Shown: positions 4,572-50,101, counted from the stretch's first letter. The stretch: DNA of 50,101 nucleotides from a virus (IMGVR_UViG_3300033143_002021:1-50101); one strand, 5' to 3'. Program-made: numbers and translations. Notes: generated by a model not told the origin, from the letters alone.

Positions 4572-4599
4572 AGTATAACACACGGCGTGCTATTGTCAA
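4572..4599 (-). promoter_or_regulatory. Early sigma70 promoter TTGACA-N16-TATACT with TG extension
   Basis: Minus strand TTGACAatagcacgccgtgtgtTATACT, 7 nt before the ATG; CACG-C-CGTG palindrome in the spacer. Confidence 0.75.
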
Positions 4600-5978: not shown

Positions 5979-6911
5979 ATGAGAATAGGATTTATAGGTA
6001 ACTTCATACCAGAATTTTCTACAGAGAATGACCGGAAATGGACTTTTCTTAGGTTAGGGCATAATGTAGTAACTTTTCAAGAGAACGAAACTTCAAAAGA
6101 CACTCTTCTTAAATGGATGCCAGACTTAGACTTACTTCTTTATAGTCACACCCACGACCCGAATTACAATATTTTAGGCTTAAAAGAAGTTTTTGAGACT
6201 TATAAGAAAAACAAGGTTCCTACCGTATCAGTTCATTTGGATAAGTGGGCTGGTTTAGAACGGGAAAAAGACGTGGGTAAAGAGGCTACTTGGTTTACAA
6301 AATATATCTTTATGGCGGATTGTTCTCCAGAAGCCGAAAAACTGTATAAAAAACATAATTTAAACTATTTTTACCTTCAACCAGGTGTCGTAGAACGGGA
6401 TTGTTATATGTCTGCTCCTGATCCAGTTCGATTCCCACATGAGATTGTATTTACTGGTTCTAAGGGCTATCACCAGGAATATCCCTTCAGACCACAACTT
6501 ATAGAGTTCCTTCAAGAGACTTACGAAGATCAATTCGGTCATTATGGAAATGATGGTATTGAGGTCGTTAGAGGACATGATTTAAACACTCTGTATGCCT
6601 CCAGTAAGATAGTAATTGGAGATTCGTGTTTTGGAACACAAGAAAACTATGTTTCTGATCGTTATTATGAGGTCCGTGGCAGGGGAGGTTTTCTTCTTAA
6701 TCCGATTGTTGGAGGAGTAGATACTATTGGTGTAGGGCATTACACCCATGATGATTTTGTCTCTTTAAAGAGCAGTATTGACTATTACCTGAAAAACAAC
6801 AACCTTCGGGAGATTAAGAGAGTAAACGGGTTTAACAAAGTTAGAGAAAGTGAAACTTATACCCACAGAGCAGTAGAGATGCTAGAAAGGATAAAAGCCT
6901 CAAAATCATGA
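5979..6911 (+). CDS. GT-B glycosyltransferase, CgeB/Glyco_trans_1_2-like
   Basis: IVFTGS..Y...R, DLNTLYASSKIVIG, SDRYYEVRGRGGFLL, HRA motifs. Confidence 0.8.
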   Translation: MRIGFIGNFIPEFSTENDRKWTFLRLGHNVVTFQENETSKDTLLKWMPDLDLLLYSHTHDPNYNILGLKEVFETYKKNKVPTVSVHLDKWAGLEREKDVGKEATWFTKYIFMADCSPEAEKLYKKHNLNYFYLQPGVVERDCYMSAPDPVRFPHEIVFTGSKGYHQEYPFRPQLIEFLQETYEDQFGHYGNDGIEVVRGHDLNTLYASSKIVIGDSCFGTQENYVSDRYYEVRGRGGFLLNPIVGGVDTIGVGHYTHDDFVSLKSSIDYYLKNNNLREIKRVNGFNKVRESETYTHRAVEMLERIKASKS

Positions 6912-7576
6912 TTAGAGAAGGAGTTAAAAGGCAAACTTGTGAAGCTGGTCATAAAAGTCATGAACGATTAGAAGTTGAGACAGATTTGGGTTTAATGACT
7001 GTTTTTAATTGGAATAAGTATAGAAGTCAACCTGGATTCTATTGTACTGGTCAAGATGATGTTTCTCGTACTTTATTCAATGAAGGAACTTGGGAAAAAG
7101 AACAAACCAAGTTAATAGGAAAAATCCTCAAAGAAGGAAACAAAAAGAACTTAGTTATTGATGTTGGTTCTCATGTTGGTTGGTATTCAAGGATGGCGAG
7201 TCAGTTTGGTTATGAGGTTGAAGCGTTTGAGGGTGATATAGAAAATGTTGAGGTTTTTAAGTTAAATGCTCCAAAGGCAAATATACACACAATATGGTTT
7301 GATAAAGATTTAGAGGGTGTTTTTGACTTAGACAAAGACGTTGAATTAATGAAAATTGATATTGAGGGTGCAGAGGAACACGTTATCAGGTATTTTGCAT
7401 CTGGTCTTAATAGAGTTAAACACTTAATAATGGAAATTAGCCCTGTGTTTAATGATTCTTACCCTGGATTGATACGAATTTTGCAAGATTTCGGATTTAA
7501 GGTTTTAGAGTTAGATGGTAAACCTTTTGACTTTAATTTTGATTTTAAACAGAGAGATTTGTATTTTAAAAGATGA
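6908..7576 (+). CDS. FkbM-family SAM methyltransferase
   Basis: VIDVGSHVGWYS, AFEG, MKIDIEGAE. Confidence 0.88.
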   Translation: MIREGVKRQTCEAGHKSHERLEVETDLGLMTVFNWNKYRSQPGFYCTGQDDVSRTLFNEGTWEKEQTKLIGKILKEGNKKNLVIDVGSHVGWYSRMASQFGYEVEAFEGDIENVEVFKLNAPKANIHTIWFDKDLEGVFDLDKDVELMKIDIEGAEEHVIRYFASGLNRVKHLIMEISPVFNDSYPGLIRILQDFGFKVLELDGKPFDFNFDFKQRDLYFKR

Positions 7577-8541
7577 AAAACACAATAATTAAGAGAGGAA
7601 ACCTTGAAATAGAGACTTTTAAAGAGAGTTCTGCTGTTCAAGTTATTTTAACTGTTAGTGGCAGTGTAATTATGCACGCCTTCTTGGAAGGTGATGCTTA
7701 TGAGTTGTGGGGAGACAAAATGGTTTATTATCCCTGGGGTATGCCTTATGAACAGAAGGTTGAACAAGTTTGTTTTAATATCCTTTTAAATCATCCTATC
7801 GCTTCTGGTTTATCCAAGGTTGAGGAAAGAATTAGTGCAGAAGATATCAGAGAAATGGTTACTGAGTTAAAAGATGACCTCTTAACTGTGCCTACTACTT
7901 ATATTATTGTGGCTGGTGGGAAATCTACTAGGTGGAAGAATTACAAGGGAATTGAAAAGCACATGATTGAGTTTGATGGTGAACCTATTATTGAAAGAAC
8001 TATTCGATTATTAAGAACTCATGGAGTTGAGGATATTGTTGTTGCATCAGATAATAGTAAGTACAAATTTAAGGGAGCAGGGTTATATAAACCCAAGTAT
8101 GACCCGAAGTATATTGATGCCAATAAATACATGGATTCCAAACCTATTTGGAACAAAGAAGGTAGAACTGTGATTCTTTTTGGGGATGTTTACTTCACTG
8201 AAAGTGCTATTTACAAGATAGTCAATGATTTTTCAAGAAGGTGGATGTTATATGGTCGTTCAGGACCAAGTAATATCGGAAAACCTTATTCTGAACCTTT
8301 TGGTATAGGTTTTTATCCCAACGAACATAAATTAATTGAGAGTGGTGCTAATAGGTCTGCCGATTTGTTTAGAAAAGAAATAGCTAATGGAACTTCACTT
8401 TGTCATTTGTATAGGTGTTTACTGGACTTCCCAGACCATTTAATCAATTCAGAACTCTTTGGTGAAAGAATGGTAATTATTGATGACTTAACAGACGATT
8501 TTGATATTCCAGAAGATTATATTAGATTTGTAAACAGATGA
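7573..8541 (+). CDS. Sugar/alcohol-phosphate nucleotidyltransferase (NTP transferase) with an unknown ~105-aa N-terminal domain
   Basis: IIVAGGKSTRW...KHMIEFDGEPIIERTIRLL; LFGDVYF; DDFDIPEDY. Confidence 0.8.
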   Translation: MKNTIIKRGNLEIETFKESSAVQVILTVSGSVIMHAFLEGDAYELWGDKMVYYPWGMPYEQKVEQVCFNILLNHPIASGLSKVEERISAEDIREMVTELKDDLLTVPTTYIIVAGGKSTRWKNYKGIEKHMIEFDGEPIIERTIRLLRTHGVEDIVVASDNSKYKFKGAGLYKPKYDPKYIDANKYMDSKPIWNKEGRTVILFGDVYFTESAIYKIVNDFSRRWMLYGRSGPSNIGKPYSEPFGIGFYPNEHKLIESGANRSADLFRKEIANGTSLCHLYRCLLDFPDHLINSELFGERMVIIDDLTDDFDIPEDYIRFVNR

Positions 8542-9224
8542 AAAACGTGAAAATTAATGGCAAGTGGGATATTTTGCTTCCTGAACACAGGGCAAACCGC
8601 AAAGAGTGGTTTTCCAAAAAGGGTTGGGAGAGAAAAAGACTGGATTCTATGTATGAAAAACTCACCAAAGATGATGTTTTGTATTATGTAGGAGTAGAGG
8701 AAGGGGAGATGCCAGCACTTTGTATGCTTTGGGGAGTTAAAAATGTGGTACTTTTTGAACCTAACAAACTCGTCTGGTCGAATGTAAGAGCCGTTTGGGA
8801 AGGAAATGACCTAGATGTACCTTTTTCCTTTGTTGGTTTTGCTAGTAACAAAGATACTAAGGGTGCAAGATTACTTGAGGGTTTTCCAGAATGTTCTAAT
8901 AAGGAAATTATTACAAATCATGGTTTTAAGGAATTGAAAGATCCTGGTGATATACCTCAAATCAGAATTGACACTGTGCAATCATTACATATCCCCCCGA
9001 CTGCTATTTCTTTGGATGTAGAAGGTTCTGAGTGGGAAGTATTAAAAGGTGCGGAACAGACTTTGAGAAAATATCATCCTAAGATTTGGCTTTCACTTCA
9101 TCCAGAGTTTCTCTTTGATCAATATGGGAAGTATTCTTACGAGGTCAGAAGGTGGATTCAAAAGATTGGTTACAAGGAAACTCTTTTGGATTATCAACAC
9201 GAAGCTCATTTTTTGTATGAATAG
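8538..9224 (+). CDS. FkbM-family methyltransferase
   Basis: YVGVEEGE, LFEPN, SLDVEGSEWEVLKGA. Confidence 0.85.
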   Translation: MKNVKINGKWDILLPEHRANRKEWFSKKGWERKRLDSMYEKLTKDDVLYYVGVEEGEMPALCMLWGVKNVVLFEPNKLVWSNVRAVWEGNDLDVPFSFVGFASNKDTKGARLLEGFPECSNKEIITNHGFKELKDPGDIPQIRIDTVQSLHIPPTAISLDVEGSEWEVLKGAEQTLRKYHPKIWLSLHPEFLFDQYGKYSYEVRRWIQKIGYKETLLDYQHEAHFLYE

Positions 9225-9759
9225 ACTAACAAAAGAAAAAAACTATTGGAACAAAGCCAGTAAAGATCCCAAAGTAGATATAAAGTATATTTCTGATATC
9301 GGCAAAGCACCCTTTTTAGACCTTCTTGGTAAGGAACTAAAAAAAGGCAAAACCCTTGAAATAGGTTGTGGAGTTGGTCGTTTAATGCAAGATGGTTATT
9401 GTGGGATAGATATTTCTGAAGGAATGTTGGAGATTGCTAAAAAGAGGAAGCCAAAGTGTCATTTTAAGTTGTCTGATGGTAGGAGTATCCCCTACAAAGA
9501 CGAAACCTTTGACAGTGTTTATTGTGTATTAGTTTTTCAACACATTCCTTTTGATGCAGTACAATTCTATATTGACGAAGCAAGCAGGGTTCTTAAAAAG
9601 GATGGTGTGTTTATTTTCCAGATGATACATGGTGACGAAGATGAACCTTTTTCTAAACATCACAGAGTCGGTAAACTGAATATCGCTAAATTCAGCAAAG
9701 ATCGTGCCTTACATGGACTTATTCACCCACAATGGACTTGGATTAAACTAACTAAATGA
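9217..9759 (+). CDS. Class I SAM-dependent methyltransferase
   Basis: LEIGCGVGRL, GIDISEGML, FDSVY..VFQH, RVLKKDG; ATG at 9217. Confidence 0.9.
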   Translation: MNRLTKEKNYWNKASKDPKVDIKYISDIGKAPFLDLLGKELKKGKTLEIGCGVGRLMQDGYCGIDISEGMLEIAKKRKPKCHFKLSDGRSIPYKDETFDSVYCVLVFQHIPFDAVQFYIDEASRVLKKDGVFIFQMIHGDEDEPFSKHHRVGKLNIAKFSKDRALHGLIHPQWTWIKLTK

Positions 9760-11285
9760 AAATAAACTATTTAACAGTAAAAGTAGGTGTTGCTCCAGAT
9801 TCCTATTGGGACCAGACTTTTATTAAAGATTTGCTTGAGGACTTACCAGAAGGCGATAGGAAGGTCTTTCTAGTCCCTGGTGCTTATCAGGGTGATGTAA
9901 TAGACAAAATTAACAAAGAACTTCAGAAACATGAAAAAGTAATGGTTTTCATAACCTCGGATGAGGAAGGTAAATTTGATTGCTCAAAACTAGAACATCC
10001 AGACATGATTCATTATTGTCAGTATGGGCATTGTGAGAACTTAATACCTCTTGGTTATACTCCACATACTAAAAAGGCTAAGTATGCTCCAAAAGTGTAT
10101 GACTGGTTTTTTGCAGGTCAGATTAATCATACCAGGCGTGAAAAGATGGGTAAGGTTTTAGAAAAACTATTGGCACGAAAAGCCACAGTTGGTTTATATG
10201 TTCCGACTGATGGATTTGCTAAGGGACTTTCTCCAGAAAGATATATTGAGGCTATGGCTGGTTCTAAGGTTGTTCTTTGTCCGTCTGGTAATGTTTCTCA
10301 TAGTAGTTTCCGTGTATATGAGGCTCTTGAGTGTGGAGCAGTACCTATTGTTGATGAGTTTAATGTTGCAGGTGAAACAGGATATTGGCAAAAGATGTTT
10401 TCTGATGCTCCATTTCCAATATTAACCTCTTATGACGAACTTCCCTATTTAATTGAAAAATACAAAGACAAAGGTCCCGAAGTTTATGCTTGGTGGATTT
10501 CCAAAAAACAAGAGATTAAAGAGAAACTTGCTATTCAATTAGGATGTCCGGTGGATGCTACAACTGCTGTAGTTGTTACTTCTCCAATTAAGTCTCACCC
10601 TGATACTGGAATGATGTGTGAGGCACTCAATAGTGTTAAACATCACCTCGATTGTAAGATAGTGATAGGGTTTGATGGGGTTAGAGATGAACAGAAAGAC
10701 TTTTCTGAAAGATATAGTGAGTATATAAATCGGATGTTGTGGATGTGTAACTTCAAATACTCAAAAACAGTTCCAGTTTTGTTTAAAAAACACAAACATC
10801 AGTCAGGAATGATGAAAAAGATAATGCCAATGATTAAAACTCCTCTTTTGTTGTTTGTTGAGCATGACACTCCTTTGGTTGTGGATGAACCGATAGACTT
10901 TCCATATTTACAGAGAACTTTACTTACAGGTCATTCCTTTCTTATAAGGTTTCATTTTGAGGCTAGTATTCCAAAAGAACATGAATATATGATAATAGGC
11001 AAGGTAGAAAACCGATTGTTAAAAACCTACCAGTGGTCACAAAGACCGCACTTGGCTAGAACAGACTTTTACACAGAAGTAATCAAGTTCTTTTCAGAGG
11101 ACAGTAATTGTTTCATAGAAGATTTGATTCATGGTAAAGTTATTGATGCCTGGATGGCTGATGAAATGAAAGGTTGGGATAAGTGGCGTATGCACATTTA
11201 TATCCCAGGAGAAAACATAAAGAGATCCTTAAACTTAGATGGGAGAGGCTCTGATTACAAATATGAAAAAGAACAAAAGTGGTAA
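9756..11285 (+). CDS. Bifunctional glycosyltransferase: exostosin/GT47-like N-terminus plus GT-A-like C-terminus
   Basis: FFAGQ...R, SKVVLCPSG....SFRVYEALECGAVPIV; C-terminal IGFDG and FVEHD. Confidence 0.72.
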   Translation: MKINYLTVKVGVAPDSYWDQTFIKDLLEDLPEGDRKVFLVPGAYQGDVIDKINKELQKHEKVMVFITSDEEGKFDCSKLEHPDMIHYCQYGHCENLIPLGYTPHTKKAKYAPKVYDWFFAGQINHTRREKMGKVLEKLLARKATVGLYVPTDGFAKGLSPERYIEAMAGSKVVLCPSGNVSHSSFRVYEALECGAVPIVDEFNVAGETGYWQKMFSDAPFPILTSYDELPYLIEKYKDKGPEVYAWWISKKQEIKEKLAIQLGCPVDATTAVVVTSPIKSHPDTGMMCEALNSVKHHLDCKIVIGFDGVRDEQKDFSERYSEYINRMLWMCNFKYSKTVPVLFKKHKHQSGMMKKIMPMIKTPLLLFVEHDTPLVVDEPIDFPYLQRTLLTGHSFLIRFHFEASIPKEHEYMIIGKVENRLLKTYQWSQRPHLARTDFYTEVIKFFSEDSNCFIEDLIHGKVIDAWMADEMKGWDKWRMHIYIPGENIKRSLNLDGRGSDYKYEKEQKW

Positions 11286-12330
11286 AATAGGTTTAATAGC
11301 TTTTGCTAATTCTTCTGGTCTTGGCGCTCAAACTAGGAGGTTGGCACAACTGATACAACCAGATAGGATTTTGGTTGTTAATTCCTCTGGGTTTTCCCAA
11401 AACAAGAAACAGAACTTTGATTGGTACAAGGATTTTGAGTTCTTTGTTTCTAACGGGTTTCCTTCAGATAAGGATGTTCTCGCTTTTATGCAGAACCTTA
11501 CACACATCTTTACTTGCGAGAATCCTTATAACTTCAACATGATTCACTGGGCTAGGCAAAAGGGAATTAAGACTTATTGTCAGTCTAACTATGAATTTTG
11601 TGAAAACCTGGGTAAACATTACCTTCCTGCTCCAGATGTATTCTTAATGCCTTCTTATTGGAAAATTAAAGAGATGGAAGAAAAGTTCGGTAAGGATTCT
11701 GTTGCTTATCTTCCCCCTCCAATAAACCCCGATGAGTTTGAGATTCCAAGGAAAATTAACATGAAAAGGAAAGGGAAGCCAAGATTCCTACATATTATTG
11801 GAACTTTGGTCACTGAGGACAGAAATGGAACCCTGGATTTACTAGAAGCTGTTAAATTGTCTAAAGAAGATTTTGAGTTGGTTATCCACACCCAACATCC
11901 ACTTCCGATGACTTACTTTTTAGATGACAAGAGAGTGAAATACAGAATAGAGGATTTTGTAAACAACTATGAGCTGTATAAGAATTTTGATGCTCTTATT
12001 TTACCCAGGAGGTTTGGTGGATTGTCTTTGACCACAAATGAAGCCCTGATGAGTGGCTTGCCGGTTTTTATGACTGATATCTCACCTAATAATAAGTTGC
12101 TTCCCAAAGACTGGCTTATTAGGTCGGAGAAGAAAGGTTCTTTCATGGCTAGAAGTAAAATTGACTTGTATTCCATTGATGTTAAAAGATTGGCAGAGAA
12201 AATTGACTGGCTGGCTTCTATTGGACCTTTAACTAAGTTGTTAAAAGAAAAGGCTTTCAAACTCGGCAAGAAGAACTTTAGTGGTGAGATATTAAGACCA
12301 AAATATGAAAAACTATTTAAACCTTTTTAA
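11263..12330 (+). CDS. GT4-family glycosyltransferase
   Basis: SGLGAQTRRL, RNGT, LPRRFGGLSLTTNEALMSGLPVFMTD. Confidence 0.85.
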   Translation: MKKNKSGKIGLIAFANSSGLGAQTRRLAQLIQPDRILVVNSSGFSQNKKQNFDWYKDFEFFVSNGFPSDKDVLAFMQNLTHIFTCENPYNFNMIHWARQKGIKTYCQSNYEFCENLGKHYLPAPDVFLMPSYWKIKEMEEKFGKDSVAYLPPPINPDEFEIPRKINMKRKGKPRFLHIIGTLVTEDRNGTLDLLEAVKLSKEDFELVIHTQHPLPMTYFLDDKRVKYRIEDFVNNYELYKNFDALILPRRFGGLSLTTNEALMSGLPVFMTDISPNNKLLPKDWLIRSEKKGSFMARSKIDLYSIDVKRLAEKIDWLASIGPLTKLLKEKAFKLGKKNFSGEILRPKYEKLFKPF

Positions 12331-14099: not shown

Positions 14100-14252
14100 A
14101 TGTTTAATGAAATGCTAATAAGAGAGCAATTTCGTGAGTTAGTAATAAACACGAAAAATATTTTAACCTATATGCAGGAGTCAAAAGAAGAAACACAAAA
14201 GTTGAAAAAGGAAATCAAGTTACTTAAAGAAATGGTTAAAAAGAAGAAATGA
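14100..14252 (+). CDS. 50-aa coiled-coil protein
   Basis: Manual translation MFNEMLIREQF...LKEMVKKKK*; GGGGTGA RBS; ATGA overlap. Confidence 0.6.
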   Translation: MFNEMLIREQFRELVINTKNILTYMQESKEETQKLKKEIKLLKEMVKKKK

Positions 14253-14908
14253 AAGCACCTAAAATAGATTGTTCTGTAATAGTTACTTGTTATCAGAAAG
14301 AAGAATATCTCAATGAGTGTCTTGAGTCTGTTAAAAGACAAACTAGACAACCAAAAGAGACTATTCTGGTTCATGATGCTTGTGATAATCCAATGGCTCA
14401 TGCCATAGCAACAACCATTATTCTTCCTGAGAATGTTGGTGTTTGTAAGGCGAGGGATATTGGGTTTAATTACTCTACTGGAAGTTTGATTCTCTTTTTA
14501 GATGCAGATGACGTTCTATCTCCTGATTACCTGGAGAAAATGGCTCTGGTGATTGCTAAAGGAGCAGATGTCGCTTATCCAGACTTGTTTGTGTGGCAAG
14601 AGGGTAATTCCTACTTATCAGTTCCTCCTAACACTATGACTAAAAAATACATTACTAGAAAATCTAAAATGCCTATACCAGTGACTTCCATGATGAAAAG
14701 AGAAGTTTATGAAAAACTTGGTGGGTTTAGGGAAATGCCTGTTTTGGAAGATTTAGACTTCTTCATAAGAGCCATGTGTAAGAATTACACAATCAAAAAG
14801 GCTCAAACCCTTTTGTGGTACAGGAGATATCCAGGAACTAGAAATTCATTAAGCATTGAAGAAAGAAAGGGGGTGTTGGCTAAGATACTTGCCCAGATAA
14901 ATGCCTAG
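14249..14908 (+). CDS. GT2-family glycosyltransferase
   Basis: SVIVTCYQ..EYLNECLESV..QT, NVGVCKARD, FLDADD, EDLDF. Confidence 0.93.
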   Translation: MKAPKIDCSVIVTCYQKEEYLNECLESVKRQTRQPKETILVHDACDNPMAHAIATTIILPENVGVCKARDIGFNYSTGSLILFLDADDVLSPDYLEKMALVIAKGADVAYPDLFVWQEGNSYLSVPPNTMTKKYITRKSKMPIPVTSMMKREVYEKLGGFREMPVLEDLDFFIRAMCKNYTIKKAQTLLWYRRYPGTRNSLSIEERKGVLAKILAQINA

Positions 14909-15227: not shown

Positions 15228-15239
15228 GTTATACTTAAA
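15207..15239 (+). promoter_or_regulatory. Late promoter CTACAA-N17-TATACTTAAA (portal)
   Basis: Near-identical to 30594-30626. Confidence 0.75.
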
Positions 15240-15243
15240 ATAT

Positions 15244-17217
15244 ATGTCGATGCCAACTAGCAAGAAAGAAAAATATGCGGAGATTGTATATAATCGTTAT
15301 ACAAAAGCCAAAGAGTTGTGCGAAAATGTATTCTCCAGGGTAGAAGTCAATCGCAACTTGTATAAGGGTGTCCTCAACTTAGATGACACTTATGAATGGG
15401 ACTATTCGTTAGTTGACCAACAAGTCTTTCCTCTTATCAGAAACTACATAGCCAGGTCCAATCCTTCAATGACCAAAGTTAGGCTTGAGGCAAGAAAAGA
15501 GGAAGATTTTGAAAGAAGGCAAGTAAATCAGGATTTTGTTAATTGGGAAATCAATGAATTACCTCTGACTTCACTTCTTACAAGAGGTTTTTTCTCCAAC
15601 TATATTGCTGGTAAGGCTTACTACAAAACTGGCTGGAAGTATGATCCCAGAGTTGTGGTTGAAAATGATGAGTATTCCTATCAGATGCGACCTCTTATCA
15701 ATCGTGGGGATTTAGAATTTATTAGGTTTAATAATCTTTTGATTCCTAATAGAAACATCCAAGATTTACAAGAACAGCCTTACATTATCGAACTCATGCA
15801 ACTTCGTATTGGAGACATGATTAAAGACAATGAAACTTTCGGTTATGAGTATTGGGATAAGAAATTTATAGCAAAACTTAAAAAGGGTGGAGTTAGTAGT
15901 AAAGAGTTGGATTATGAAGCAGATTTCGTAAAAGACACTGACACCAAGGATAGAATGGCTTTTATGGCGGCAACTTTTCCTGCGGCACGGATGCAAACAC
16001 TTGAGGGAGATGTAATCTATATTCCCTTAATTAAACACGACAGGCAGGTTTTAAATCTAAACATGGAGAATGAATACTGGCATGGTCATTATCCTTATAT
16101 AGACATGACTGCCTTTCCTGAAGATGATGAGTTTTTCTCAATGAGTGTTGTTGATGCTGTAGGAGATACTCAAATCGCCTCTACTGAAGTTTTAAACCAG
16201 ACACTAACAAACATCCGTCAGGTAAACAACAATATGTGGATAGCCGGTACTTCGGCAGCTTCTACCCCTGATTATATGTTCCAGCAAAGACCTTCAGGGA
16301 TTATTAGAGTTCCAGGTGATCCAAACCAAATTCAACCAATAAGACCGATTGACTCTACAAGGTCAATGTTGGCGGTTGGACAGGAACTAAATACTAAGTT
16401 TGAAAGAACTGGTGGAATCTCATCACTTTATTCATCTGGTTCTGCTTCTACTAAGGCAATCAATCAAACTGCTAGAGGAGCGCAAATAATTGATGAGAAC
16501 ATAGAAACTAATGTGAAAATGATTCTCGACCTCTTTGGTGAGCAAGTGTTGAAGAAACTTGGGAATCACTTTATTGAACTTAATGCTCAATATGTATCAG
16601 AAGAACAAACTTTCGCTGTTACTGGTAAAAAGGGTGTAAGAGAACTTGTTACAATTTCTCCAGATGAAATAAGTGCAAACTTTGATGTTTACACAATGTC
16701 TGAGGAAATGATTAAACAGACTCCTGCTTCGAGGCAAGCCTCTTTACAAAATCTTATTACCCTTATAAATACGGAGGCTAGTCGGGCAGGAGTACAAGCT
16801 GATATAACACCACTAATGGAAGCCTTAATTGATTCCTACCCAGATATGGAAAATATAGACGATATTATTGTGTCACTTGATGAAAAATCTCAAAGAGATA
16901 TTGCTATGATGGAAAGAGGGCAAGAACCAGAGATACTACTTCGTGACCCACATCTTGAACTTGTAATGGCGGCTTCAATCAGATTTGAAGATTTCCAGAC
17001 CTTATATCCTCCAGAGATAATTCAGTTGTTTGAGAAATACACAGAAAAACACTTAAGGTATATTCAAGCTGAACAGGAAGCTAAGATGATGGCACAACCT
17101 CAAATGCCACAAGCCATGTCTCCAGAAGCTATGGCACAATCGGCAGGTGCAGGAACTATTCCAGAAGCTACAGGAACCGGACAGCGAAGTGGTTATAATT
17201 TAAGCCAGATCAAGTAA
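15244..17217 (+). CDS. Portal protein (P22/SU10-like)
   Basis: 657 aa after TerL; YWHGHYPYI, FFSMSVVD, NQTARGAQI, Q/M/P-rich tail. Confidence 0.85.
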   Translation: MSMPTSKKEKYAEIVYNRYTKAKELCENVFSRVEVNRNLYKGVLNLDDTYEWDYSLVDQQVFPLIRNYIARSNPSMTKVRLEARKEEDFERRQVNQDFVNWEINELPLTSLLTRGFFSNYIAGKAYYKTGWKYDPRVVVENDEYSYQMRPLINRGDLEFIRFNNLLIPNRNIQDLQEQPYIIELMQLRIGDMIKDNETFGYEYWDKKFIAKLKKGGVSSKELDYEADFVKDTDTKDRMAFMAATFPAARMQTLEGDVIYIPLIKHDRQVLNLNMENEYWHGHYPYIDMTAFPEDDEFFSMSVVDAVGDTQIASTEVLNQTLTNIRQVNNNMWIAGTSAASTPDYMFQQRPSGIIRVPGDPNQIQPIRPIDSTRSMLAVGQELNTKFERTGGISSLYSSGSASTKAINQTARGAQIIDENIETNVKMILDLFGEQVLKKLGNHFIELNAQYVSEEQTFAVTGKKGVRELVTISPDEISANFDVYTMSEEMIKQTPASRQASLQNLITLINTEASRAGVQADITPLMEALIDSYPDMENIDDIIVSLDEKSQRDIAMMERGQEPEILLRDPHLELVMAASIRFEDFQTLYPPEIIQLFEKYTEKHLRYIQAEQEAKMMAQPQMPQAMSPEAMAQSAGAGTIPEATGTGQRSGYNLSQIK

Positions 17218-18184: not shown

Positions 18185-22336
<4,152 letters not shown>

Positions 22337-25640: not shown

Positions 25641-26129
25641 ATGACAAACACAAGTCCAAAGACTTTTGTCGTATTAGGTTCTAAACGTGGTGGAACTTCT
25701 TTTGTGGCTCAAGCATTAGGAAGTGCAGGAGTAAAGTTTGACGTTTGTGGTAATGGACACAATGAAGATTTAGACTTTGTTCAGTTAAATGACAAGATTT
25801 TAAAGTTTGCTGGTGGGGATTGGAACAATATCCCAAGTGATGAAAAAATAGCCCATGCAGTTGATCATTATAAACACCAAGTAAAGACCTTGTTGAAACG
25901 AAAGAAAATCCAAATGTGGGGTTGGAAAGACCCACGACAGTCTGCAACCATTAAACACTTTTTACCTTACTTGGAAGATGATGTTTACTTGGTTTGTGTA
26001 TTCAGGAAAAAGGAACTTGTTGCTCAAAGTATCAAAACAATATGGGGAAAACCTTTAGCGAAAGGTCGAAAGATTGTAGACAGTTACTATGAGAGGCTAA
26101 TTGATGCCATAAAGGAGTTTACAAAATGA
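25641..26129 (+). CDS. PAPS-dependent sulfotransferase
   Basis: VVLGSKRGGTS (5'-PSB loop), WGWKDPR, VCVFR....VAQS. Confidence 0.82.
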   Translation: MTNTSPKTFVVLGSKRGGTSFVAQALGSAGVKFDVCGNGHNEDLDFVQLNDKILKFAGGDWNNIPSDEKIAHAVDHYKHQVKTLLKRKKIQMWGWKDPRQSATIKHFLPYLEDDVYLVCVFRKKELVAQSIKTIWGKPLAKGRKIVDSYYERLIDAIKEFTK

Positions 26130-27268
26130 GATTTCACTATATTGCCATGCCTCACCTTCCGGTAACTAAGGAATATATTTCTTGTGCTTTTACACAAAAG
26201 ATTCACAAGCTAACACGAATGTTGCTGGATAAAGGTCACAAGGTCTTTTTGTATGGGGTTGACCATACAGACATTAAACACAAGAACCTGGAATTTATAC
26301 CTACAGTAAATTTGGAGGACATAAGAAAAGAGTGGGGGGATGGTGATAACAGGTTTGAATTAGGATATGACTGGAAGAATGGAGATTTTAGACACGATTT
26401 GAATAAAAAGAAAACCGAGTGTCATTTTAAATTCAGACAACGGGCAGTTAAGGAAATCAGGAAACGAAAGAAAGATGATGATTTCCTTCTTTTAAGTCAG
26501 GGATATTACCATAAAAATATAGCTGATGATGTTAAGTTGTTTTTGACTTGTGAACCTGGTATTGGATATCGTGGAAGTTATGCAAAATTTAGAGCCTTTG
26601 AGAGTGCCTATATTCAAAACTTCACTTATGGCTCAGAACACCCAAGACAGTCAATCAACGGCAACTATTACGATAGGGTGATTCCAAACTACTTTGACTT
26701 AGATGATTTCAAGTTTAGCAACAAGCCCGACAATTACCTCTTTTATATAGGAAGAATGATTAAAAGGAAGGGTTTAGCGACAGCCTTAATGGTTGCTCAA
26801 CATCTTGATAAGAAACTCATATTAGCTGGTCAAGATTCTGGTGATTGGAGAAAAATTGGAGTTGAATACAAGAAAGCTGAATTTATCGGAACTGTGGGAG
26901 TTGATGAGCGGAAGAAACTCTTGTCTAAAGCCATGGTTACGTTTCTACCGACACTTTACCTTGAACCCTTTGGTGGGACATCAGTTGAGTCCATGCTAAG
27001 CGGTACTCCTGCTATAACAACAAACTTTGGTGTATTTCCTGAAACTATTAGAAATGGAGTTGGTGGATATAGGTGTGATACTTTAAACGACTTTGTTGTG
27101 AATACCAGGAAAGCCTTTCAACTAGACAGAAAGAAAGTGAGAAGATATGCTGTTAGTAGATACTCAATGGAAGCGGTGAATGAGTTGTACGAAAAGTGGT
27201 GGAAGGACTTATACCAAGTATATTTAAGTACAAAAAGTGATGTTAAAGGTTGGCATTTGATAAAATGA
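26126..27268 (+). CDS. GT4-family glycosyltransferase
   Basis: VIPNYFD, YIGRMIKRKG, PTLYLEPFGGTSVESMLSGTPAITTNFG. Confidence 0.9.
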   Translation: MRFHYIAMPHLPVTKEYISCAFTQKIHKLTRMLLDKGHKVFLYGVDHTDIKHKNLEFIPTVNLEDIRKEWGDGDNRFELGYDWKNGDFRHDLNKKKTECHFKFRQRAVKEIRKRKKDDDFLLLSQGYYHKNIADDVKLFLTCEPGIGYRGSYAKFRAFESAYIQNFTYGSEHPRQSINGNYYDRVIPNYFDLDDFKFSNKPDNYLFYIGRMIKRKGLATALMVAQHLDKKLILAGQDSGDWRKIGVEYKKAEFIGTVGVDERKKLLSKAMVTFLPTLYLEPFGGTSVESMLSGTPAITTNFGVFPETIRNGVGGYRCDTLNDFVVNTRKAFQLDRKKVRRYAVSRYSMEAVNELYEKWWKDLYQVYLSTKSDVKGWHLIK

Positions 27269-27980: not shown

Positions 27981-28013
27981 TTACACTTCAAATAAATTAC
28001 ATATAAACTTAAA
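27981..28013 (+). promoter_or_regulatory. Late promoter TTACAC-N17-TAAACTTAAA (scaffold/capsid)
   Basis: Matches the late consensus. Confidence 0.65.
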
Positions 28014-30370: not shown

Positions 30371-30538
30371 ATGGCTACAAAAACAGCTACAGCAAGGACA
30401 GTTTTCGTATTAGGTAGAGAAGTTGACGGAAACAGAGAGGCTTATGTCGTAGAAAGTGCAGAGGAATATTCTGTTGATATAGGAACTATGGTGACTTACA
30501 CAGATCAAACAGCTAGTTTCCCATACGCAATTACCTAA
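30371..30538 (+). CDS. 55-aa probable capsid decoration/cement protein
   Basis: Manual translation MATKTATARTVFVLGREVDG...FPYAIT*; GAGGTGA RBS; own promoter and terminator. Confidence 0.7.
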   Translation: MATKTATARTVFVLGREVDGNREAYVVESAEEYSVDIGTMVTYTDQTASFPYAIT

Positions 30539-47497: not shown

Positions 47498-48178
47498 ATG
47501 AACTTTCAGGACCTTGTAAGAACCTTCAAGGGTGAACTTCTTTCTCCAACTGGTGATAATCCCAAGGTTGGGTTTATGAACTTATTGTTTGGTAATAAAG
47601 ATCAAGGAAATACCAATATTCAAAGAAGTCAAGGTGATATAGATGCTTCATTTAGAGAAAAAGGATTGATTAAATTAACAGATCCCAAAACTGGTGAAGA
47701 ATCTTGGTCAAGTCCCGAATCTGCAAAAGGTAACTATTCTCAAGGTTGGGATAATGACACGCCAAGTCCTGGAGTAACTCCACCCCCAGATAAATCAGCA
47801 CTTCCTTATTATCAAGATATAAATAAAGCTACTCAAGAAAATGAATTACCAGAACAAGTCTTGTATAGGATGTTGCGTAATGAATCTATAAATTTCAATC
47901 CTGATGTTATTAGTGGAGCAATTAGTTCTCCAAAAGGAGCGCAAGGTATAGCACAGTTTATGCCAGACACTTCTGCATGGCTTGGAATTGACCCATTAAA
48001 TCCACAAGAGGCGATAGCTGGTAGTGGTAAGTATCTTGCTGATCAGTTAAAGACTTTTGGGGATATTGAGACAGCTTTGGCGGCGTATAATGCCGGTCCA
48101 GGAAATGTTAGGAAATATGGTGGAGTGCCTCCCTTTGATGAAACTGAAAAGTATATCGCTGATATTTTAGGATTTTAG
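47498..48178 (+). CDS. Lytic transglycosylase (SLT)
   Basis: NES.NFNP...SPKGAQGIAQFMP.T, ALAAYNAGPGNV, ETEKY; TATACTTAAA 6 nt before the ATG. Confidence 0.92.
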   Translation: MNFQDLVRTFKGELLSPTGDNPKVGFMNLLFGNKDQGNTNIQRSQGDIDASFREKGLIKLTDPKTGEESWSSPESAKGNYSQGWDNDTPSPGVTPPPDKSALPYYQDINKATQENELPEQVLYRMLRNESINFNPDVISGAISSPKGAQGIAQFMPDTSAWLGIDPLNPQEAIAGSGKYLADQLKTFGDIETALAAYNAGPGNVRKYGGVPPFDETEKYIADILGF

Positions 48179-49374
48179 CTAGTGTCTTTTAACTGATACT
48201 CAAACAGCTTTGCTAAATGGAAACCTTTAGGTCTTGAATCTGTTGTTACATTCCATTTGTTCTCTAGCTTTACAATCTCCATACTCTCAAGAGTTCCAAG
48301 ACTTTTGATGTTATCTACTAGATCATATACGAAACAGGTCTTTTTGTTTTTAGATAGCCTTGTTCCTCTCCCCAAAACTTGACTCCATAGGCGAAGGCTT
48401 CTGGTCGGTCTTAATGAAACAATACAATCTATGTCCGGTACATCAAACCCGATTGAAAAGATATTCACTCCATATAAGATATTGCATTTTCCACTCCTGA
48501 AGTTAGATATAATTTCCTCTCTCTTTTTCTTGGTAGTCTTTGAGGTAACAACTTCTGATTTGTTTGTCATTTTAGACAATACTTCTGCTTGATTGACTGA
48601 TGAGCAGAAAATGAGTTTCTTCTTATGAGGTACTCTCACAATCAAGTCTCTGAAGGATGTGTAATTCTTACATATTCGATTCTCAAAATCTTCTAAGTCA
48701 AACTCTGATTTTGTTTTGTTGGTTTTCAGGTCTTGATGTTTAACTACAGAAACATCCTTGTATGTTAAAGGTACTAAATACTTTTGTTCAACCAATTCAT
48801 TTACATTTACAACATAGATAATTCTGTCCCAAAACTTTGGGTAGTACCTTGAGATGATTTTAGTTGTTGTAATTGCTTTCTGCATCCACTGAAGGTGTCC
48901 CCATCTTTCGTACATTACATCTTGCCTGAAGGGTGTTGCGGTTAAACCAATAACTTTAGGATTGCCGATAGCTTTGAAGAACTTGTTATACATTCCTTTG
49001 GCTTTCTTTGGGTTTACTAGGTCACACTCATCAATTATGGCTACTTCATAGTGAGTAAACAGTTCCGGGTGTTTATGAGCTGATTGTATTGTAGCGATGG
49101 TGAATTTCTTGATAGTCTTTTCGTTCATTGAAGCCGAGAATACTCCGATCTCTTTTCTTTTGACAACCTTTGAGAGTTTATCTAAGTCTTGCTCTAAAAG
49201 TTCCTTTGATGGTACTAGTATAAGTATTGGTTTTTTGTGTTGATCTGCAAAACCGGCAATTACATGGGTCTTGCCGGAGCCTTGTGCCATACTAACCACG
49301 GAGTTTCCTGGCAAAGATAATGACCATAACATTTTGTCTATGGCTTCTTGTTGGTATTCACGAAGATCTTGCAT
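48175..49374 (-). CDS. SF2 DExD/H helicase (UvsW/YejH-like)
   Basis: LREYQ, GSGKT, DECD, TATP, GFDVP, QVLGRGTR. Confidence 0.92.
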   Translation of the reverse strand: MQDLREYQQEAIDKMLWSLSLPGNSVVSMAQGSGKTHVIAGFADQHKKPILILVPSKELLEQDLDKLSKVVKRKEIGVFSASMNEKTIKKFTIATIQSAHKHPELFTHYEVAIIDECDLVNPKKAKGMYNKFFKAIGNPKVIGLTATPFRQDVMYERWGHLQWMQKAITTTKIISRYYPKFWDRIIYVVNVNELVEQKYLVPLTYKDVSVVKHQDLKTNKTKSEFDLEDFENRICKNYTSFRDLIVRVPHKKKLIFCSSVNQAEVLSKMTNKSEVVTSKTTKKKREEIISNFRSGKCNILYGVNIFSIGFDVPDIDCIVSLRPTRSLRLWSQVLGRGTRLSKNKKTCFVYDLVDNIKSLGTLESMEIVKLENKWNVTTDSRPKGFHLAKLFEYQLKDTS

Positions 49375-49449
49375 AAAAAAACACCCCTTCTACCCCCCAC
49401 CCTCCCTTAAAATGCCTCGGCAGTTACAAACAACTGCGTACTCGGGGTT

Positions 49450-49599
49450 TTATCCTCCAGCCCGTGCAGTTGGTGTGTCGTTGTGAGTCGTGCTAGCATT
49501 GTCAACATTACTTTCTTCAGCTTTCGCTGGGCTTGCAAAGCCAACTAATATTATTAGTAAAAGCGTGATAAATAAAAACAACCTTTTTAGTCTACTCAC
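49450..49599 (-). CDS. 49-aa secreted pre-peptide (Sec signal plus 22-aa mature part)
   Basis: Manual translation MSRLKRLFLFITLLLIILVGFASPAKA|EESNVDNASTTHNDTPTARAGG*; GTG start with strong AGGGAGGT RBS. Confidence 0.7.
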   Translation of the reverse strand: MSRLKRLFLFITLLLIILVGFASPAKAEESNVDNASTTHNDTPTARAGG

Positions 49600-49634
49600 G
49601 TTGTAACCACCTCCCTTCTAGTTTTTAATATAAT

Positions 49635-49766
49635 TTAAGAGTCTAGTATCTTTGTAATAACTAAATAAAAGTGTGCAGGTAGTTGTGTTTCCCACTGATG
49701 TACTAGATCACTTATAGCTCTTAACTTAGCTTTATTCTTTGTTCCGTTTTTAAACTTCTTCTTCAT
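49635..49766 (-). CDS. 43-aa hypothetical protein
   Basis: Manual translation MKKKFKNGTKNK...ITKILDS*; ATGA-coupled. Confidence 0.5.
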   Translation of the reverse strand: MKKKFKNGTKNKAKLRAISDLVHQWETQLPAHFYLVITKILDS

Positions 49767-49978
49767 ACTCTCGGTGTTGACCAAAACTTAATCCACTTTT
49801 GTATTTTCTTCTTACGGACATATTCTCTAAAACCCAATCTCCACATCAACCTATCAAAGTAGTTTAGTTTGGCTATGGTTACAATAACTCTTTTGTCCAT
49901 AAACTTGTCTGTAAACCACAAAGCGTTCTTTCTTCTTATTAGTTTGAATTTGTTAGGGTCAAGTTTCATACTTCTCAT
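49763..49978 (-). CDS. Hypothetical basic protein
   Basis: ORF track; fits the minus-strand operon. Confidence 0.6.
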   Translation of the reverse strand: MRSMKLDPNKFKLIRRKNALWFTDKFMDKRVIVTIAKLNYFDRLMWRLGFREYVRKKKIQKWIKFWSTPRV

Positions 49979-49987
49979 GCTTCCTCT

Positions 49988-50101
49988 TTTGCTCGGCTAC
50001 TGCTTTGTTGTAGCCATCAATAAACAATGGCATTTCATAACTAGCTTGTTCAATTTGTTCTTTGCTTAACTCTACATCTTTCAATATAGCTTTTATGGTT
50101 T
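49988..50101. repeat. Terminal direct repeat, right copy
   Basis: Identical to 1-114. Confidence 0.97.

Follow-up and report, generated by a model that had tools for sequence, protein, structure and literature searches.

The viral DNA analysed here (IMGVR_UViG_3300033143_002021; 50,101 bp, referred to below as the window) carries near its right end a 49-aa ORF on the minus strand with the layout MSRLKR-LFLFITLLLIILVGF-ASPAKA/EESNVDNASTTHNDTPTARAGG, where the slash marks a predicted signal peptidase cut. The question raised by this locus is whether the ORF is a genuine gene for a secreted peptide and, if so, what such a peptide might do in a phage that encodes no recognisable partner for it. 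An earlier note on the same DNA described a secreted pre-peptide of arbitrium/Phr-like architecture with a GTG start, n- and h-regions, an A-K-A site and a polar 22-mer; all of these elements are present, and they are located on the minus strand. The pre-peptide reading is well supported by the strongest Shine-Dalgarno (SD) site of the genome, a unique pass of a strict signal-peptide filter, a codon score in the coding range and a homologue, each of which is considered below (coordinates in Table 1).

Table 1. Features of the 49-aa ORF, its surroundings and the main gene blocks of the window.
Feature	Position	Strand	Remarks
SF2 helicase (ResIII + Helicase_C)	48175-49374	-	399 aa, downstream of the ORF; PHROG 16 6e-78, ResIII 3e-24, Helicase_C 7e-17
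Hairpin GCAGTT-GTTTGT-AACTGC	49420-49437	-	in the 75-nt spacer before the helicase
49-aa ORF	49450-49599, including stop	-	GTG start, 49 aa
Stop codon TAA	49450-49452	-	at the residue where the homologue P0001 also ends
Last ten codons, NDTPTARAGG	49453-49482	-	10/10 identical in the only homologue; candidate active part
Predicted mature 22-mer EESNVDNASTTHNDTPTARAGG	49453-49518	-	coding region; placed by tblastn
GTG and 27-codon Sec-type signal peptide	49519-49599	-	MSRLKR / LFLFITLLLIILVGF / ASPAKA; predicted SPase I cut after Ala27
Shine-Dalgarno site AAGGGAGGTGG	49617-49607	-	6-10 nt from the GTG; strongest in the genome
Weak promoter-like element TTACAA - 19 nt - TATATT	49627-49657	-	upstream of the SD; off-spacing; function doubtful
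Upstream gene	49763-49978	-	71 aa; no families found
Leftward block		-	ArdC-N-like, YopX, Cas4-like exonuclease, zinc-ribbon proteins, 49-aa ORF, SF2 helicase (PHROGs and Pfam)
Rightward genes, packaging and virion		+	gp3-like small terminase, TerL, SU10-type portal, adaptor, major capsid (PHROGs and Pfam)
Rightward genes, fibre and lysis		+	1,383-aa collagen-like fibre; CHAP endolysin with holin-like proteins on either side
Rightward genes, replication and others		+	replication initiator, DnaB-like helicase, RecA, NinG/Rap, SLT transglycosylase
Glycosyl-/methyl-/nucleotidyl-transferase cluster	5,979-12,330	+	PHROGs and Pfam

The IMG/VR record of the window is classed as having direct terminal repeats and as 100% complete, that is, as a whole virus. 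Bases 1-114 are identical to bases 49988-50101 (the first versus the last 114), and the map is therefore effectively circular with a length of ~49,987 bp. Owing to the same identical ends, a minus-strand gene running from ~313 down to 49959 can be read as one gene cut by the record boundary and split over the record ends. Minus-strand genes extend from ~4,449 down past position 1 and on from 50,101, ending at 48,175, and nearly all the others are on the plus strand.

In scans of 50 proteins with PHROGs and 40 with Pfam, which took in a minority of the ORFs shorter than 70 aa, no integrase, CI/Cro-type repressor, TPR or HTH-receptor family was found, which bears out the earlier statement that no AimR/Rap-type TPR protein, integrase or CI repressor is recognisable. 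Given the absence of integrase, repressor and TPR matches, the phage, with its genome of ~50 kb, is apparently virulent. The host can be assigned with moderate confidence to low-GC Gram-positive bacteria. In particular, the CHAP endolysin makes a Gram-positive host probable; its CHAP domain matches 41 phage records (29 of Arthrobacter, 10 of Staphylococcus, one of Arcanobacterium and one other), both phage matches of the capsid are Clostridium and Sporosarcina phages, YopX matches are mostly from Bacillota phages, and the GC content outside the fibre gene is 34-39%. Against this assignment, the best matches of the terminase and the helicase are phages of Gram-negative hosts or uncultured phages. 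RecA matches 11 loci, all at ~47-53% identity and distributed over many phyla, and is thus uninformative about the host.

Several properties of the ORF are those expected of a gene. Its codon-usage score (0.196 per codon) is reached by only 3 of 1,090 wrong-frame windows (0.28%; mean -0.743), so that codon usage fits a coding frame; relative to the 218 true coding windows (mean 0.385) it is at the 10th percentile. The SD site AAGGGAGGTGG, when paired with a Bacillus-type anti-SD, has a predicted energy of -23.3 to -23.5 kcal/mol and ranks first among 58 genes, a rank that it keeps even if the best alternative start is chosen for each of the other genes (runner-up -19.2, median -5.85 kcal/mol). 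It also leads the 13 start-linked sites with energies of -13 kcal/mol or lower that the two strands of the genome contain, in agreement with the earlier description of this ribosome-binding site as one of the strongest in the genome. Most genes of the phage have a weak or absent SD, as the median after best-start choice indicates, and the remaining strong sites belong to scaffold-like, capsid, decoration-like and holin-like genes; together with the top rank of AAGGGAGGTGG, this suggests high expression of the 49-aa gene. The promoter-like element upstream of the SD was not called in a consensus promoter scan, and its TTACAA -35-like hexamer also occurs in a TTACAA-N17-TATACT family of the genome (see below). 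On this evidence the 49-aa ORF is very probably a real, translated gene.

When 1,835,955,588 representative proteins were searched exhaustively with phmmer, a single match was obtained, P0001 (E = 7.5e-12, 72% identity), which is a singleton on a 569-bp ENA contig. The P0001 gene call of 64 aa corresponds to the 49-aa ORF extended from an upstream ATG through the translated SD: the extra residues beside the true start are KGGGDN, and the same frame of the window reads (stop)KGGGYN. The translated SD block is identical in 7 of 9 positions between P0001 and the window, as against 0 of 7 for the seven residues further upstream, so that conservation starts at the SD. It had been proposed that longer homologues would turn the ORF into a truncated remnant; the 64-aa protein is an over-extended call with the same stop, and this objection falls away. 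P0001 and the window differ by one in-frame codon indel (a deletion) and share the stop and the ...ARAGG end. Identity to P0001 amounts to 18/27 in the signal peptide, 6/12 in the spacer and 10/10 in the C-terminal decapeptide; the substitutions in the signal peptide are mostly conservative, and the block VGFASPA(K/R)AEES is retained. The C-terminus, whose lack of conservation would have counted against a peptide gene according to the earlier note, is thus the same in both sequences. This conservation is nevertheless statistically weak, with P = 0.02 if the last ten positions are preset and P = 0.29 if an identical run of ten or more at any position is counted, as calculated from two sequences only.

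Searches of several other kinds were carried out for the peptide. No family was found at threshold in Pfam, PHROGs or NCBIfam, and a tblastn search against 50,697 phage records (E <= 10) gave no matches. Of three candidates obtained with a two-sequence profile, P0001 alone was retained; viral contigs yielded none for three queries, namely P0001, the alignment and a degenerate pattern of the C-terminal decapeptide, and no homologue was found in genome contigs. A single-sequence search of a word-index protein collection returned no candidate either, which is a weak negative because the index also missed P0001. The best score in the ESM Atlas, 0.75, was uninformative, and the exact peptide sequence is absent from a collection of 15 billion proteins. 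Two sets of apparent matches were rejected. One is a locus on a metagenome contig (42% identity over residues 4-41) that encodes an unrelated signal peptide in a 92-aa ORF, with a C-terminus that is not shared. The other arose when 401 genomes from the phylum to which a Clostridiales MAG belongs were searched in six frames with the profile: at E <= 0.1, 167 of them had matches, all at 24 bits or less; these are read as generic signal-peptide look-alikes, most of them at the starts of long frames.

Type I signal peptides have a basic n-region, an h-region of ~7-20 residues, small residues at positions -3 and -1, and a helix breaker. The 49-aa product follows this plan, with three basic residues in the n-region MSRLKR, a 15-aa h-region, and a c-region in which Ala occupies -3 and -1 and Pro occupies -4, preceded by Gly at -8; by heuristic assessment, the n/h/c layout, the A-x-A motif and the Pro at -4 of a Sec/SPase I signal peptide are all found. 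A strict heuristic (at least two K/R and no acidic residue N-terminally, a 12-residue apolar window, and A-x-A) was passed by a single ORF when the 369 ORFs of 30 aa or longer were screened, and 30 mononucleotide shuffles, with 11,247 ORFs in total, gave no pass; when 1,643 start/stop combinations of 25 aa or longer were screened, the 49-aa ORF was again the only one to pass. AlphaFold2, run on the two-sequence alignment, predicts a helix at residues 3-21 (pLDDT 84-87), with the rest a low-confidence coil (pLDDT 55-57). Sub-threshold NCBIfam matches do not extend beyond the signal regions of secreted proteins from Gram-positive bacteria. For example, the signal region resembles those of NF041742 (WGxxGxxG small secreted proteins; E = 0.006, 17.1 bits versus a cut-off of 35) and NF053819 (EF0750 LPXTG surface protein; E = 0.003, 18.0 bits versus a cut-off of 47); membership in either family was rejected, as the resemblance is confined to the signal region, the scores are far under the cut-offs, and P0001 has no match. 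The A-K-A site seen earlier is retained in P0001 as A-R-A. The apolar stretch spans 15 uninterrupted residues, or 19 (L7-A25) if Ala, Ser and Pro are counted, compared with a guide value of ~19 or more residues, along with the lack of a usable peptidase site, for an uncleaved single-pass membrane protein. Given the textbook layout, the conserved cleavage block and a 15-residue core that is short for a stable anchor, the product is likely to be exported and cut after Ala27.

The part that would be released, EESNVDNASTTHNDTPTARAGG, contains four acidic residues, one basic residue and six Ser/Thr, and is predicted to be acidic, polar and unstructured. It is thereby unlike cationic Sec-dependent bacteriocins. 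In the phage's own six-frame translation, the 22-mer matches its own locus only, the next hit being to repeats of the collagen-like fibre at E = 0.22. The C-terminal decapeptide and nonapeptide strings had no occurrence in the literature, and the listed occurrences of the string TARAGG concern unrelated topics. A peptide of this size would be too short to fold and, by elimination, would be left with the role of a ligand, a mimic or a decoy.

The distribution of the gene was assessed through relatives of the capsid and of the downstream helicase. None of five records with a related capsid (61-67% identical), one of which is more than 90% complete, encodes the helicase or the peptide. The nearest relative, G001 (45.6 kb, 93% complete, major capsid protein 61% identical), shares the structural core and several replication genes and has no ORF that passes the strict signal-peptide filter. 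Since this relative does without both the peptide gene and the helicase, the peptide gene is, judging by gene content, accessory, patchy and dispensable for this type of phage. The closest helicase locus in IMG/VR (47% identity) was considered as a possible second instance and rejected, as its upstream region is unrelated and contains no such ORF; N-terminal fragments of the helicase with 56-65% identity occur on contigs of 1.1-1.9 kb.

The domains of the downstream helicase span residues 3-375 of the 399-aa protein, and the helicase is not a peptide receptor. It is probably co-transcribed with the 49-aa ORF, given that no terminator separates the two genes over 75 nt: no terminator-like site was called in the interval 47900-50101, and no U-run directly follows the stem of the hairpin in the spacer. 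This hairpin, to which the earlier note had drawn attention, does exist, but it is unremarkable: the spacer RNA folds with z = 0.65, and 147 of 200 shuffles fold as well, so that, with the lack of terminator calls, a terminator or regulatory structure was rejected. The G-rich block recurs in the same spacer, at 49397-49408 on the minus strand before the helicase start (AAGGGAGGGTGG, with GGGGTAGAAGGGGTG after it); only the distal part of this second copy is positioned as an SD, and the pattern shows no genome-wide enrichment (three occurrences versus 1.1 expected). At its other end, the helicase (-) converges with the SLT transglycosylase gene (+), with a 4-bp overlap at 48175-48178 and no terminator-like structure called between them.

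In arbitrium systems, aimP lies directly after the receptor gene aimR and is followed by aimX, in temperate phages and mobile elements, whereas here neither AimR/aimX nor a TPR, integrase or repressor is found and a helicase follows the peptide gene. In Rap-Phr modules, phr is next to the rap gene for a TPR phosphatase or overlaps its 3' end; in contrast, no rap-like gene was found among the scanned proteins of this genome, and there is no sequence match to Rap-Phr. Known RRNPP mature peptides comprise 4-10 residues, and the anionic, unstructured 22-mer would be unlike them unless trimmed further. The likeness to these systems is one of architecture. AimP of SPbeta/phi3T-like Bacillus phages is also a phage pre-pro-peptide and similar in length; its Sec signal and spacer precede a short, conserved C-terminus in which the final residues are small. 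Phr peptides, including that of the Rap-Phr pair of phage phi3T, are likewise small Sec-exported pro-peptides in which the active part is expected at the C-terminus. No sequence similarity to AimP was found; in function, the peptide would resemble AimP/Phr pro-peptides most closely. The AimP peptide is reported to be produced in lytic growth (PMC6458997), phage-borne Rap-Phr examples exist (PMC8027211), and R-G-A is found at positions 4-6 in 74% of clade-2 mature peptides (PMC13220667). TARAGG, at the corresponding end here, lacks R-G-A; as this motif is not universal across clades, its absence would not by itself disqualify the peptide.

These comparisons can be made more explicit with the criteria of RRNPP_detector (Bernard et al. 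2023; PMC10075063), which comprise a pro-peptide of 10-100 aa (21-50 for validated ones), a Sec/SPI signal, a receptor of 250-500 aa, TPRs, and an adjacency of -60 to 400 bp. The length of 49 aa and the Sec signal, as judged by the strict n/h/c and A-x-A heuristic, agree with this description, as does the high-confidence SD that the tool uses for unannotated peptides (PMC10075063). Instead of an adjacent receptor, the neighbours are the 399-aa SF2 helicase and the 71-aa protein, and no TPR family was detected in the 40 (Pfam) or 50 (PHROGs) proteins scanned. With only two of the five features present, the 49-aa gene is, by these sequence criteria, not a member of the arbitrium or Rap-Phr systems.

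The explanation that we favour, with a probability of about 0.4, is an accessory early gene for a Sec-exported, cleaved and diffusible peptide whose target is not encoded by the phage. The gene is located near the end of the leftward early DNA-metabolism block and, with no terminator in between, would be transcribed with the helicase that follows. Translation from the strongest SD of the genome would be very efficient, and the 49-aa product would enter the Sec pathway and be cut by SPase I after Ala-Lys-Ala27, as the canonical n/h/c organisation and the conserved cleavage region suggest. As a result of efficient translation, Sec entry and SPase I cleavage, infected cells would shed the 22-mer in large amounts as a soluble peptide, acidic and unstructured, and host exoproteases may, more speculatively, trim it toward NDTPTARAGG. 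By elimination, the peptide would act from the outside, on the host surface, on a peptide-sensing pathway or on a co-resident prophage; a target outside the phage is most likely in view of the lack of a recognisable phage-encoded partner. Such a peptide would be a one-way broadcast, a mimic or a decoy rather than a self-contained communication module. A more specific version appears unlikely, in which a lytic phage would send out a dedicated orphan peptide to broadcast or to jam, separate from the receptor-peptide cassette of the described systems, and uninfected hosts or resident prophages would read it through their own peptide sensing. The earlier note had gone as far as an orphan signalling peptide and a possible new phage communication system: the secreted pre-peptide in this proposal stands, whereas no receptor candidate or lysogeny module was recognised among the scanned proteins, the family has two known members, and G001 lacks the gene. 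A signalling role of the peptide is plausible but unsupported.

Some of the same properties could be explained if the product stayed in the membrane. Single-pass membrane regulators are frequent among characterised proteins of up to 50 aa, and an uncleaved protein with six residues inside and 22 outside might modulate a sensor kinase, a transporter or a phage receptor, or act in superinfection exclusion. The patchy distribution of an accessory gene, its position in the early block near the ArdC-like, Cas4-like nuclease, YopX and helicase genes, and the 19-residue stretch L7-A25 (with Ala, Ser and Pro counted) are all compatible with this. Moreover, MgrB-type small membrane regulators and the SPO1 host-takeover module, with its small genes and very strong SD sites, provide precedents that are similarly tiny, early and accessory, with an N-terminal hydrophobic helix and a strong SD; the 49-aa product differs from them in having a conserved signal peptidase site, a cytoplasmic part of six residues and no sequence relation. 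We regard a membrane protein as rather unlikely, because the canonical A-x-A with Pro at -4 and Gly at -8 is kept in the homologue, the uninterrupted hydrophobic core has only 15 residues, and the best conserved part is the far C-terminus, not the membrane-proximal segment. Phage-phage communication, in which progeny phage would sense the peptide with a receptor of their own that belongs to an unrecognised class outside the RRNPP family, is still less probable. This possibility draws on the RRNPP/arbitrium-like architecture (49 aa, Sec signal, spacer, conserved C-terminus ending in small residues; PMC10075063), on the very strong SD, and on ~20 phage proteins without any family. However, those of at least 250 aa sit in the virion module, which G001 keeps without the peptide, and the flanking genes, for the helicase and the 71-aa protein, offer no candidate; in addition, with no integrase or repressor found, there is no apparent choice between lysis and lysogeny for a signal to control.

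The abundance of sugar-modifying enzymes in the genome (at least five glycosyltransferase-like genes, a nucleotidyltransferase and methyltransferases) suggests another role, that of a substrate or carrier in the form of a small Ser/Thr/Asn-rich glycopeptide. The 22-mer carries six Ser/Thr and two N-x-S/T triplets; P0001 retains N-D-T and has lost the first triplet, N-A-S. The enzymes lack signal peptides by the strict filter, so that modification would have to take place before Sec export of the unfolded chain; their genes are 35-45 kb away with no genomic linkage to the ORF, and G001 has one shared glycosyltransferase (47% identity) and no peptide. This role is accordingly very unlikely. To the same low level of probability we relegate an ORF without peptide function, be it an upstream ORF or RNA element that tunes the helicase or a similarity that reflects recent common descent. 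That only two sequences are known and that the exact sequence is missing even from the 15-billion-protein collection would fit such an ORF. The pattern of change does not: conservation begins at the SD and not farther upstream, the indel is in frame, the stop is shared, and the signal-peptide substitutions are conservative. The coding-range codon score, the unique signal-peptide pass and the ordinary intergenic RNA structure also speak for a peptide product, as in the exported-peptide reading preferred here.

To our knowledge, the described phage peptide-communication systems (arbitrium and phage Rap-Phr) are all cassettes of a receptor and a pro-peptide in temperate elements. Detection tools demand adjacency of receptor and peptide (PMC10075063), so that a receptor-less pro-peptide-like gene would be invisible to them. 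The accessible part of a 2026 review of phage communication (PMC13389391) makes no mention of a receptor-less secreted peptide of a lytic phage; the viral pro-peptide tables of PMC10075063 and PMC13220667 were outside this search. If the peptide does signal, phages could send peptide signals without receiving them, and host peptide sensing or the decisions of rival temperate phages could be manipulated; cross-talk has been reported for arbitrium phages (PMC13220667; bioRxiv 10.1101/2025.10.13.681967). If it does not, the gene would encode one more small exported phage protein of a common kind; in two catalogues, small secreted or membrane proteins account for 15.3% and 30% of the families, respectively (PMC11364881). 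With an uncultured host and a family of two members, the present practical value of the gene is that of a candidate for heterologous testing.

Several other features of the genome were observed in the course of the analysis. The promoter-like family TTACAA-N17-TATACTTAAA occurs on the plus strand at 15229, 30616, 33456, 38799 and 47485, with weaker copies at 28003 and 30339; there are nine motif matches versus 2.5 expected, and none of 100 shuffles reaches nine. The genes that start at 15244, 30632, 38812 and 47498 begin 6-9 nt past the TATACT hexamer, which suggests leaderless or near-leaderless late mRNAs and, if so, would explain the scarcity of SDs in most genes. A near-consensus early promoter (TTGACA-16 nt-TATACT, with TGT of an extended -10 in front of the latter hexamer) is located at 4572-4599 on the minus strand, where the leftward block and the packaging genes diverge. 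Sugar-modifying genes are unusually numerous (at least five glycosyltransferase-like genes, one nucleotidyltransferase and three methyltransferases at 5979-12330, 14249-14908 and 26126-27268), and the main cluster (5979-12330), which separates the small from the large terminase gene, has no counterparts in G001. The collagen-like fibre gene (18185-22336, 1,383 aa) has a GC content of 47-51%, compared with ~36% for the genome, and a strong G-over-C skew. Finally, two small plus-strand ORFs that fall below the usual cut-off but have very strong SD sites are probably real genes, namely a 50-aa ORF after TerL (14100-14252; SD -19.0 kcal/mol) and a 55-aa ORF after the capsid gene (30371-30538; SD -16.6 kcal/mol), the product of which could be a head decoration protein.
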